A stretch of DNA of 64,000 nt from Escherichia coli (GTDB lineage: Bacteria > Pseudomonadota > Gammaproteobacteria > Enterobacterales > Enterobacteriaceae). The notes beneath the pieces are model-generated. The model was not told the DNA's origin. It worked only from the letters and a program-made list of their open reading frames with translations, and did not search any database. A program made the translations under genes and the position numbers. The first letter of the stretch is position 1. Each line of letters opens with the position of its first letter. Of the stretch, positions 22,292 through 54,245 are shown piece after piece. The stretch is from NCBI RefSeq assembly GCF_003334335.1, contig NZ_QOWQ01000006.1; one strand, written 5' to 3'.

Positions 22292-22406
22292 CGACAACTC
22301 CTTATAAATCTTCACCTTCAGGCAGATCGTCAAAATAACTGATGATCATCATCATTGTTATCCGGGTTCTTACTCCGCCGAACAAGCGTATTGTGAGGAT
22401 ATCAAA

Positions 22407-41359: not shown

Positions 41360-42097
41360 ATGCTATATATCTTTCGTCTTATTATTACCGTGATTTACAG
41401 CATCTTAGTCTGTGTATTCGGCTCCATTTACTGCCTTTTCAGCCCGCGTAACCCGAAACATGTGGCCACCTTTGGGCATATGTTTGGCCGTCTTGCGCCG
41501 CTGTTTGGCCTGAAAGTTGAGTGCCGTAAACCTACAGACGCTGAAAGCTACGGCAATGCTATCTATATCGCTAACCACCAGAACAACTATGACATGGTGA
41601 CAGCATCGAACATCGTGCAACCGCCGACGGTGACGGTAGGTAAAAAGAGCTTGCTGTGGATCCCCTTCTTCGGGCAGTTGTACTGGTTAACCGGCAACTT
41701 ATTGATCGACAGAAACAATCGCACTAAAGCTCACGGCACCATTGCGGAAGTAGTGAATCACTTCAAAAAACGCCGTATTTCCATCTGGATGTTCCCGGAA
41801 GGAACCCGCAGCCGTGGTCGCGGCCTGCTACCGTTCAAGACTGGAGCATTTCACGCGGCAATTGCGGCGGGCGTCCCGATTATTCCCGTGTGCGTCTCTA
41901 CAACTTCGAATAAGATTAATCTTAATCGACTGCACAACGGTCTGGTGATTGTCGAAATGCTGCCGCCAATTGACGTCAGTCAGTATGGCAAAGATCAGGT
42001 TCGTGAGCTGGCTGCCCATTGTCGTTCGATAATGGAACAAAAAATCGCCGAGCTCGATAAAGAAGTCGCAGAACGCGAAGCCGCCGGAAAAGTTTAA
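41360..42097 (+). CDS. plsC: 1-acyl-sn-glycerol-3-phosphate acyltransferase
   Basis: 245 aa with the acyltransferase H(X)4D motif (NHQNNYD). Confidence 0.9.
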   Translation: MLYIFRLIITVIYSILVCVFGSIYCLFSPRNPKHVATFGHMFGRLAPLFGLKVECRKPTDAESYGNAIYIANHQNNYDMVTASNIVQPPTVTVGKKSLLWIPFFGQLYWLTGNLLIDRNNRTKAHGTIAEVVNHFKKRRISIWMFPEGTRSRGRGLLPFKTGAFHAAIAAGVPIIPVCVSTTSNKINLNRLHNGLVIVEMLPPIDVSQYGKDQVRELAAHCRSIMEQKIAELDKEVAEREAAGKV

Positions 42098-45956: not shown

Positions 45957-46214
45957 TCATTCTGCGTACATACGCAAGCAGCGCAGGCAATCAAAATAGT
46001 CCTGAGCATCAAGACGCGTATTGGCTCTGTTAGCTTCGGATTTGGCAGCATAGATTTGTGGGCGTAGTGCTTTCATATCCTGCTCAAGCCGGGCGATTTT
46101 GGTATTTAATGTTTGCACATTGCTCGCCAGCTGATTGACCTTTTGCTCATTGACGCAGCCACTGAGCAAGCAGGTTGCCAGAACAACAGCTCCCACGGTG
46201 AAAATCGTTTTCAT
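45957..46214 (-). CDS. yqhH: Lpp-like outer-membrane lipoprotein paralog
   Basis: 85 aa with lipobox (LLSGC) and Lpp-like heptad region. Confidence 0.8.
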
Positions 46215-46264
46215 ATAGTGTTCCCTTTTATTTATTGTTCCGGCTAATTGTTATTTAATTCAGC

Positions 46265-48218: not shown

Positions 48219-48322
48219 ACGTTCCTCCTTTATATGAACTCACCGGAGCAGGCTCCGGTGAGGTGTTGTGAACTTAAGTCTGGACGAAATGCCCGAAAAC
48301 GAAAGTTTGAGGCGTAAAAAGC

Positions 48323-51417: not shown

Positions 51418-52605
51418 TTATACAATTCGCGCAAAACCGGCGTCCAGATCGGCAATCAGATCGTCGACATCTTCCAGACCAATATGCAGGCGAATCAAGG
51501 TCCCGCTAAAATCGATCTCGCCTTGTGGGCGAATGGCGGCGATATGTTCTGGTTGATTTGCCAGGATCAACGATTCATACCCGCCCCACGAGTAGGCCAT
51601 GCTGAATAAACTGAAGTTATCCAGATAGTTCGCCAGCTCTTCATTATTGAGTTTTTTCTTAAGCACAAAGGAAAATAGCCCGCTGCTGCCTGTAAAGTCT
51701 CGTTTCCAGAATTCGTGACCTTTACTGCCAGGCAGAGCAGGGTGGTTAACTCGCGCAACTTGCGGATGTTCTGCCAGCCATTCAGCCACTTTCAGACTGC
51801 TTTCATGATGTTGACGCAAACGCACACCTAATGTGCGCAGGCCACGGCTGGTTATATAGGCGGTATCGGCATCGACCATCTGGCCCATCAGATAGGCATT
51901 TTCCCGTAGCTGCTCCCAGCAACGGGCATTGCACACGGCAGTGCCAATCATCGCATCTGAATGCCCAACCAGATATTTGGTGGCGGCTTGAATAGAAACA
52001 TCGATGCCAAAATCCAGCGCCTTAAACAGCACACCGGCTGCCCAGGTGTTGTCGATCATAATGATGGCATCCGGCACCACACTGCGTACGGCGGCAACAA
52101 TCGCCGGAACGTCGTGGACTTCCATGGTGATGGAGCCTGGCGATTCCAGAAACACGATTTTAGTGTTTGGCTGCAGATGCTTAACGATATCGGCACCAAT
52201 CAGCGGATCAAACCATGATGTCGTTACGCCCAGTTTGCTGAGGATTTTGCTACAGAAATCCTGACTCGGTTCATAGGCGGTGTTGGTCATCAACACATGA
52301 TCGCCCTGTTCGATAAAAGCAAGAATGGAATTAGCAACCGCTGCCGCCCCGCAGGGAAATAGCACGCAGCCTGCGCCACCTTCCAGTTCACACATCGCTT
52401 GTTGTAAGGAGAAATGGGTTAACGTTCCGCGCCGTCCATAGAACAACTCTCCATTGGCGCGATTACGTGTCGCGTGTTTTTTGGCTTCTACACTGTCAAA
52501 GACCAGCGAAGAAGCGCGCTGAATCACGCTATTTACCGCGCCGAGAGAGTATTTTTTGCTGCGTCCTGCATTCACCAGTTGAGTATCAAGCTTTTTGTCC
52601 GCCAT
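51418..52605 (-). CDS. metC: cystathionine beta-lyase
   Basis: 395 aa from ATG at 52605 ([15 protein letters not shown]...), PLP-dependent. Confidence 0.9.
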
Positions 52606-52623
52606 GTCGGGATTCCTGTTTTT

Positions 52624-52639
52624 ATACGTCTGGATGTCT
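52624..52639. promoter_or_regulatory. candidate MetJ operator (tandem met boxes) upstream of metC
   Basis: ATACGTCT and GGATGTCT resemble tandem AGACGTCT met boxes, 20-35 bp upstream of the metC start. Confidence 0.45.
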
Positions 52640-52856
52640 AAACTAGCATGAATATTCGCGGGCGCATCCTGAAGAATTGGCATAAAGCAGAAAATTTTCG
52701 CAAATGGCGTGCTGGTGACTTTTTTACTGCGTAAACGCAAGGAAAAGAAAGCAAAGGTACGGCAGTATGCAAATAGTAATGAGAACGACTATCAATTCGA
52801 CGTCGTTTTGATATTATTATGCGCAGATTTTGTGACTTGCGTCCTGGAGATACACA

Positions 52857-53591
52857 GTGGGTAATAATTTAATGCAGACGGACCTTTCCGTCTGGGGTAT
52901 GTATCAGCACGCCGATATTGTCGTTAAGTGCGTGATGATTGGGCTTATTTTGGCCTCCGTAGTCACCTGGGCAATCTTCTTCAGTAAGAGCGTAGAGTTC
53001 TTCAATCAGAAGCGTCGCCTTAAGCGCGAGCAGCAACTGCTGGCTGAAGCGCGTTCCTTAAACCAGGCCAACGATATCGCCGCTGATTTTGGTAGCAAAA
53101 GCTTAAGCCTGCATTTGCTCAATGAAGCGCAGAATGAGCTGGAACTGTCAGAAGGCAGCGACGATAACGAAGGTATTAAAGAACGTACCAGCTTCCGTCT
53201 GGAGCGTCGGGTCGCCGCAGTGGGTCGTCAAATGGGCCGCGGTAACGGCTATCTGGCAACCATCGGCGCGATTTCTCCGTTCGTTGGTCTGTTTGGTACG
53301 GTCTGGGGCATCATGAACAGCTTTATTGGTATCGCGCAAACGCAGACCACTAACCTGGCAGTCGTTGCGCCGGGTATCGCAGAAGCTCTGTTAGCAACGG
53401 CAATCGGCCTCGTGGCAGCGATTCCTGCGGTCGTTATCTATAACGTATTTGCACGCCAGATTGGCGGCTTTAAAGCGATGCTGGGTGATGTTGCAGCGCA
53501 GGTATTGTTGCTGCAAAGCCGTGACCTGGATCTGGAAGCCAGCGCCGCTGCGCATCCGGTTCGTGTCGCACAAAAATTACGCGCAGGATAA
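52857..53591 (+). CDS. exbB: TonB-system energiser ExbB
   Basis: 244 aa MotA/TolQ/ExbB family. Confidence 0.95.
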   Translation: MGNNLMQTDLSVWGMYQHADIVVKCVMIGLILASVVTWAIFFSKSVEFFNQKRRLKREQQLLAEARSLNQANDIAADFGSKSLSLHLLNEAQNELELSEGSDDNEGIKERTSFRLERRVAAVGRQMGRGNGYLATIGAISPFVGLFGTVWGIMNSFIGIAQTQTTNLAVVAPGIAEALLATAIGLVAAIPAVVIYNVFARQIGGFKAMLGDVAAQVLLLQSRDLDLEASAAAHPVRVAQKLRAG

Positions 53592-54030: not shown

Positions 54031-54245
54031 TTGCCTGATGCGCTACGCTCATCAGGCCTACAAAATCTATTGCAACATGTTGAATCTTCGTGCGTTTGTA
54101 GGCCGGATAAGGCGTTCACGACGCATCCGGCATTAGGTGCTCAATGCCTGATGCGCTACGCTTATCAGGCCTACAAAATCTATTGCAACATGTTGAATCT
54201 TCATGCGTTTGTAGGCGGATAAGGCGTTTTCGCCACATCAGGTAA
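54031..54245. repeat. REP/BIME cluster: two ~105-bp direct repeat units, each containing inverted REP palindromes
   Basis: TGCCTGATGCGCTACGCT(C/T)ATCAGGCCTACAAAATCTATTGCAACATGTTGAATCTTC...GTAGGC...GGATAAGGCGTT appears twice (about 54032-54135 and 54147-54245). Confidence 0.85.

Follow-up and report, generated by a model that had tools for sequence, protein, structure and literature searches.

Separate MetJ and Fur operators in the metC-exbB divergent promoter region of Escherichia coli

Introduction

Does the short spacer between the divergent genes metC and exbB of Escherichia coli hold genuine operators for methionine and iron control, and if so, do the two controls act jointly or each on its own gene? 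The question was raised by a preliminary description of a 64,000-nucleotide stretch of DNA (the window), in which tandem met-box-like octamers were pointed out just upstream of metC, and a Fur-box-like AT-rich segment, judged to be weak, upstream of exbB. Both operators are already known in detail and are curated, textbook-level features of E. coli K-12. The outcome therefore carries little weight as a discovery, and its use lies in calibration, in that a reader of sequence only had placed two real operators correctly. In our assessment the region is, with high confidence, the divergent metC-exbB promoter region native to E. coli, with two separate repressor operators serving one gene each.

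Results and Discussion

Layout of the metC-exbB spacer

The window derives from the E. coli chromosome, and a 901-bp query around the region matched 5424 of 5426 complete E. coli genomes. The spacer (positions 52606-52856, 251 bp) is identical to that of K-12 MG1655 at 251 of 251 positions, and published K-12 data thus apply to it directly. metC lies on the minus strand and exbB, followed by exbD, on the plus strand. The following landmarks delimit the spacer.

52603-52605, minus strand: metC start codon ATG (open reading frame list and K-12 annotation; the MetC tblastn match begins here)
52614-52617, minus strand: probable metC ribosome-binding site AGGA, 8 nt before the ATG (read from the sequence)
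52846-52849, plus strand: exbB ribosome-binding site GGAG, 7 nt before the GTG (read from the sequence; invariant in the alignment)
52857-52859, plus strand: exbB start codon GTG (open reading frame list and K-12 annotation)

An Rfam scan of the whole window assigned no RNA family to the spacer. A 51-codon open reading frame that spans the Fur box (52709-52864) was rejected as a gene, since in-frame stop codons interrupt it in 46 of the 66 orthologous loci, Citrobacter among them. For the exbB gene itself (52857-53591), the ten genomes listed as matching best carry the automatic NCBI product name "tol-pal system-associated acyl-CoA thioesterase", and the curated K-12 record has "Ton complex subunit ExbB"; the automatic product name looks like a propagated misnaming.

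The MetJ operator at metC

Candidate met boxes were scored with the MetJ matrix and thresholds of Augustus and Spicer 2011 (PMC3228920), which call for at least 3.15 bits per box and a sum of at least 12.58 bits. Two boxes were found in 8-bp register.

52624-52631, minus strand: met box proximal to metC, AGACGTAT, 9.96 bits (published matrix; PMC3228920 Table S1; kept in Enterobacteriaceae)
52632-52639, minus strand: met box distal to metC, AGACATCC, 8.96 bits (published matrix; PMC3228920 Table S1; conservation)

Once reverse-complemented, the octamers of the preliminary description, ATACGTCT (52624-52631) and GGATGTCT (52632-52639), give the pair agacatccagacgtat published for K-12, which confirms them as met boxes. 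Read on the metC strand from 52639 to 52624, they are the adjacent octamers AGACATCC AGACGTAT, with 6 of 8 and 7 of 8 matches to AGACGTCT, respectively. The pair sits 18 bp upstream of the metC ATG, well inside the roughly 75 bp before the start codon of a methionine gene where MetJ operators typically occur, and sums to 18.92 bits (8.96 + 9.96), above the published thresholds, and is the top MetJ site of the 64 kb; sites of at least this score are expected 0.025 times per shuffled window (200 dinucleotide shuffles). The octamers on either side have scores of -9.4 and -8.7 bits, by which a third or fourth met box beside the pair was ruled out, and the metC operator thus consists of exactly two boxes.

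The matrix scan and the comparison with curated sites that had been proposed as checks lead to the same answer: Table S1 of PMC3228920 lists for K-12 metC the same sequence, two boxes with 18.92 bits, 18 bp from the start codon. The operator differs in no respect from that of K-12 (sequence agacatccagacgtat, score, ATG distance and spacer are identical) and is simply found in another E. coli strain. In the same study E. coli operators were assayed by lacZ fusions, comparing wild-type with a metJ deletion, and by gel shifts, and MetJ bound DNA of the shared metC/exbB spacer.

In the whole window only two sites pass the published MetJ thresholds, the metC pair being the better one. The other, ATATGTTTGGCCGTCT at 41478-41493, scores 13.97 bits, a level at which about 0.7 sites are expected per shuffled window, and is probably a chance match.

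The Fur operator at exbB

On the exbB side a core Fur box and an AT-rich extension adjoining it upstream were delineated.

52769-52777, no strand assigned: AT-rich extension GCAAATAGT upstream of the core 19-mer (conserved across Enterobacterales)
52778-52796, no strand assigned: core Fur box AATGAGAACGACTATCAAT, with its centre at 52787, 70 bp upstream of the exbB start (20.03 bits; conservation; gel shift in PMC2189734)

To score Fur sites, a matrix was built from the centres of 19 strong sites in Table 4 of Chen et al. 2007 (PMC2189734), with the exbB site itself left out. The training sites were those of fhuA, fepA-fes, fepD-entS, entC, gpmA, fiu, efeU, sufA, ydiE, cirA, mntH, nfeF, bfd, ryhB, sodA, fecI, fecA, fhuF and yoeA; their centres were mapped to NC_000913.3, and the distance to the gene start was checked where the current annotation allowed. 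The symmetrised 19-bp matrix (consensus AATGATAATCATTATCATT) holds 23 bits of information, and its training sites score 16.1-27.9 bits when left out one at a time. With 20.03 bits the exbB box falls within this range of proven sites. It is the sole pick of the matrix in the spacer and the highest of the window (next best 14.8 bits), and in shuffled sequence the expected number of scores this high is 0.01 for the 64 kb and 0.0002 for the spacer.

The Fur-box-like segment at about 52769-52795, quoted in the preliminary description as AAATAGTAATGAGAACGACTATC (52771-52793), is accordingly real, but at 20.0 bits with a matrix of proven sites, and with the conservation described below, it cannot be called weak. 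That impression stems from consensus counting, by which the box matches only 13 of 19 positions of the classical consensus and 11 of 14 of the 7-1-7 form; a further 21 19-mers of the window also reach 13 of 19. Classical consensus counting was dropped as a test of Fur sites, being non-discriminating. It understates a true Fur site, whereas a matrix of real sites together with phylogenetic footprinting identifies the exbB box unambiguously.

The box coincides with the published site at -70. According to PMC2189734, exbB has a Fur site of 19.1 bits at this position, one of three overlapping sites that together form a 31-bp cluster, and 150 nM Fur shifted an oligonucleotide with the exbB site. 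Compared with this cluster (Eick-Helmerich and Braun 1989, as cited; PMC2189734) the position is the same, and the difference of 0.9 bits (19.1 published, 20.0 here) is explained by our matrix having been built on a different, overlapping set of sites. The AT-rich extension is probably part of the overlapping cluster; a site centred on 52775 within it scores only 1.6 bits with our own Fur matrix.

Fur binding and Fur-dependent expression are likewise documented in Gao et al. 2023 (PMC10164565), in which a Fur ChIP-exo peak is reported at 3150091-3150113 (old MG1655 coordinates), 85-107 bp upstream of exbB. This corresponds to about 52750-52772 in the window, so that the peak adjoins the core Fur box just upstream and does not lie over it. 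That study assigns exbB and exbD to the core Fur regulon shared by nine E. coli strains, and both were derepressed in fur deletion mutants (log2 change 1.9-5.5, nine strains).

Second-tier Fur matches in the window are found at 18759-18777 (14.8 bits), 22338-22356 (13.7 bits) and 46197-46215 (12.7 bits). They score under the range of proven sites and within that of the shuffled sequences (median maximum 12.5 bits).

Conservation of the two operators among relatives

Species-representative genomes were scanned with ExbB, giving 80 loci from Escherichia to Pseudomonas, and metC was found to be the divergent neighbour of exbB in most Enterobacterales. The preliminary description had let its case depend on conservation in orthologous intergenic regions, and this was found across Enterobacterales for the Fur box and in Enterobacteriaceae only for the met boxes.

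The Fur 19-mer is nearly invariant and reaches 15 bits or more in 66 of the 67 loci from Enterobacterales, with variation mostly at the central base or toward the consensus (as in AATGATAATTACTATCAAT of Yersinia and Providencia). Across the order it is flanked by AAATAsT upstream and by TGnTATnAT 11-14 nt (mostly 12) downstream. In 26 Enterobacteriaceae loci a threshold-passing met-box pair occurs at a distance of 13-43 bp (most often 16-22) from the metC start codon. A matrix scan of the orthologous loci found no met boxes at metC in Erwinia, Pantoea, Tatumella, Dickeya, Yersinia, Photorhabdus, Xenorhabdus and Providencia, and some Serratia have different met boxes, 60-73 bp upstream. Our lineage pattern agrees with the literature, in which 81 of 119 Enterobacteriales were counted as having met boxes at metC. 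Control of metC by MetJ is a lineage-specific acquisition, unlike the architecture of Fur box and extended -10 element at exbB, which is constant throughout the order Enterobacterales.

In 27 aligned Enterobacteriaceae spacers the mean identity to the base of the window is 0.93 for the met boxes and 0.97 for the Fur 19-mer, as compared with 0.61 for the sequence in between. That both strings merely resemble operators by chance in an AT-rich spacer, and have no regulatory role, is an idea for which the poor discrimination of consensus counting, with its 21 equally good 19-mers, would speak. It is, however, hardly credible when both sites are the top matrix matches of 64 kb (0.025 and 0.01 expected), form the most conserved blocks of the spacer, and have published binding and expression data for the identical sequence.

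Among the more distant loci, those of Serratia, Yersinia, Providencia, Xenorhabdus and Photorhabdus (L050-L053 and L057-L068) have the Fur box 290-560 bp upstream of the residue aligned with the ExbB start, a distance that fits the description of a long N-terminal extension of ExbB in Serratia (PMC9008036). The Fur box of this group is nearer the consensus, with up to 24.1 bits. In the Pseudomonas loci (L069-L081) a Fur-like 19-mer, AACAAGAATTACTTGCAAT, is conserved before the exbB homologue, its distance upstream of the ExbB-aligned start being about 300-380 bp; it scores 10.6-15.3 bits with the E. coli matrix.

Independence of the two controls

The proposal that methionine and iron regulate the two divergent units is supported by published, tested sites, with the refinement that the two controls are separate. 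With the divergent genes just 251 bp apart, and MetJ binding fragments of the spacer whichever of the two genes names them, the operators might be taken for one shared control region in which MetJ also acts on exbB or Fur on metC. Yet the operators lie 138 bp apart, each on its own predicted core promoter, and the Fur box stays with exbB in loci where metC is missing (L010, Pectobacterium and some Pantoea). Moreover, MetJ exerts no control over exbB in vivo (PMC3228920), and metC has no entry in any of the supplementary tables of the Fur pan-regulon. Shared control is, on this evidence, very improbable, and separate control of each gene by its own repressor is the reading adopted here.

The divergent pairs metJ-metBL and metE-metR (MetJ) and fepA-fes and fepD-entS (Fur) likewise have short spacers and involve the same two repressor families. 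Each of these pairs shares one operator, whereas metC-exbB has two repressors with separate operators, between which no cross-regulation was detected. A bidirectional operator is defined by one site cluster that acts on both genes, and metC-exbB has no such cluster.

Predicted promoters and the probable geometry of repression

A generic scan for -35/-10 promoters and terminators in 52500-52950 returned nothing. Two conserved motifs are nevertheless compatible with core promoters.

52640-52648, minus strand: predicted metC extended -10 element TGcTAGTTT (TGnTARTYT pattern kept in 27 aligned Enterobacteriaceae spacers)
52809-52817, plus strand: predicted exbB extended -10 element TGaTATTAT (TGnTATnAT, at a near-constant distance from the Fur box, within about 2 bp, across the order)

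Judged by these motifs, both promoters appear to be of the extended -10 type with poor -35 hexamers. The metC element (TGcTAGTTT, 52648-52640) ends exactly where the met boxes begin. Its transcript start is predicted at about 52631-52635, near 52633, which would place the met boxes roughly from -6 to +10. For exbB a transcript start at about 52824-52825 is predicted, and a 17-bp spacer would put the -35 hexamer (52789-52794) inside the Fur box. All but three of the strong Fur clusters overlap a predicted sigma-70 promoter according to PMC2189734, and exbB is not an exception.

With each operator situated on its own predicted core promoter, and with the published sigma-70 overlap at exbB, repression by promoter occlusion is likely at both genes, given the predicted transcript starts and geometry. 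When S-adenosylmethionine is plentiful, MetJ dimers bind the two tandem met boxes (52624-52639) cooperatively, and from their position over the predicted metC transcript start would block RNA polymerase and turn metC off. When iron is plentiful, the 9-1-9 box (52778-52796) and the AT-rich bases beside it are bound by Fe2+-Fur, which represses exbB-exbD and would lie over the -35 region of the extended -10 promoter predicted for exbB.

A conserved 22-bp block and possible further inputs

Between the two operators lie a conserved block and a published predicted CpxR site.

52724-52745, no strand assigned: conserved 22-bp block TTACTGCGTAAACGCAAGGAAA, which includes the palindrome TGCG-N4-CGCA (kept in 24 Enterobacteriaceae loci with no more than 3 mismatches)
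52741-52755, no strand assigned: published predicted CpxR site GGAAAagaaaGCAAA, PSSM score 9.98 (PMC9600279 supplement; weak)

The 22-bp block is the only unexplained feature of the spacer. In all 24 loci it lies 63 bp from the centre of the Fur box, while the intervening 20-25 bp vary, and the window contains no second copy of it. In L010 (Escherichia sp. ESNIH1, 1-1500), exbB is preceded by a same-strand open reading frame of 410 amino acids in place of the divergent metC; this locus keeps the block, the Fur box and the -10 pattern, and its upstream frame is open and in frame with exbB. The block is missing or degenerate in L009, L027 and L046, which are Enterobacteriaceae that keep both operators.

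Tentatively, the block TTACTGCGTAAGCGCAAGGAAA (52724-52745) could be a candidate site for a further transcription factor and thus a third input to exbBD or metC, an idea suggested by its conservation that we rate as possible but rather improbable. If true, it could mediate, for example, the reported anaerobic repression or a response to envelope stress. Put more broadly, at least one further functional site might exist beside those of MetJ and Fur, whether the 22-bp block, the CpxR site or the source of an FNR ChIP signal, and would bring exbBD or metC under additional control by envelope stress or anaerobiosis; this would be an addition to the main explanation and no replacement for it. The constant placement of the block between variable flanks argues for such a site, and a search for a factor assigned to the block, which gave none, argues against it, as do the three loci without an intact copy.

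The CpxR prediction was considered against a CpxR box made up of tandem pentamers at 5-bp spacing (GTAAA-N5-GTAAA) that is conserved and CpxR-dependent. The 5' end of the predicted site overlaps the 3' end of the 22-bp block, and conservation is poor over its 3' two-thirds. Transcript levels of both metC and exbB are lower on Cpx activation (PMC9600279), in line with a CpxR input. On the other hand, the score of 9.98 is low, and the changes are still seen when cpxR is deleted (metC 0.06, exbB 0.20; PMC9600279), which makes direct CpxR control doubtful.

As for anaerobic control, exbB has been reported to be more repressed anaerobically, and an FNR ChIP-chip peak was assigned to exbB/metC at 3150195 (old coordinates), with no FNR-like site given (PMC1802558). 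The peak corresponds to about position 52668 of the window. On reading the spacer, no convincing TTGAT-N4-ATCAA was found, which agrees with the blank in the FNR ChIP-chip table (PMC1802558), and in our reading the 22-bp block, too, matches the FNR consensus poorly. Taken together, a further functional site in the spacer seems rather unlikely, and control of metC by MetJ and of exbB by Fur remains the main explanation.

Other features of the window

The Rfam scan gave several matches elsewhere in the window. Two strong SIB RNA matches lie on the plus strand at 10903-11052 and 11278-11427, with 142 and 148 bits, respectively; RNAs of this kind are the small-RNA antitoxins in the ibs/sib family of type I toxin-antitoxin systems. 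An FMN riboswitch at 20123-20271 (plus strand, 121 bits) is presumably the ribB leader. The sRNA ES173 was matched at 48257-48320 on the minus strand. Finally, naRNA4, a nucleoid-associated RNA derived from repetitive extragenic elements, was matched on the plus strand at 2913-2983 and 54101-54171, with one copy located just downstream of exbD.
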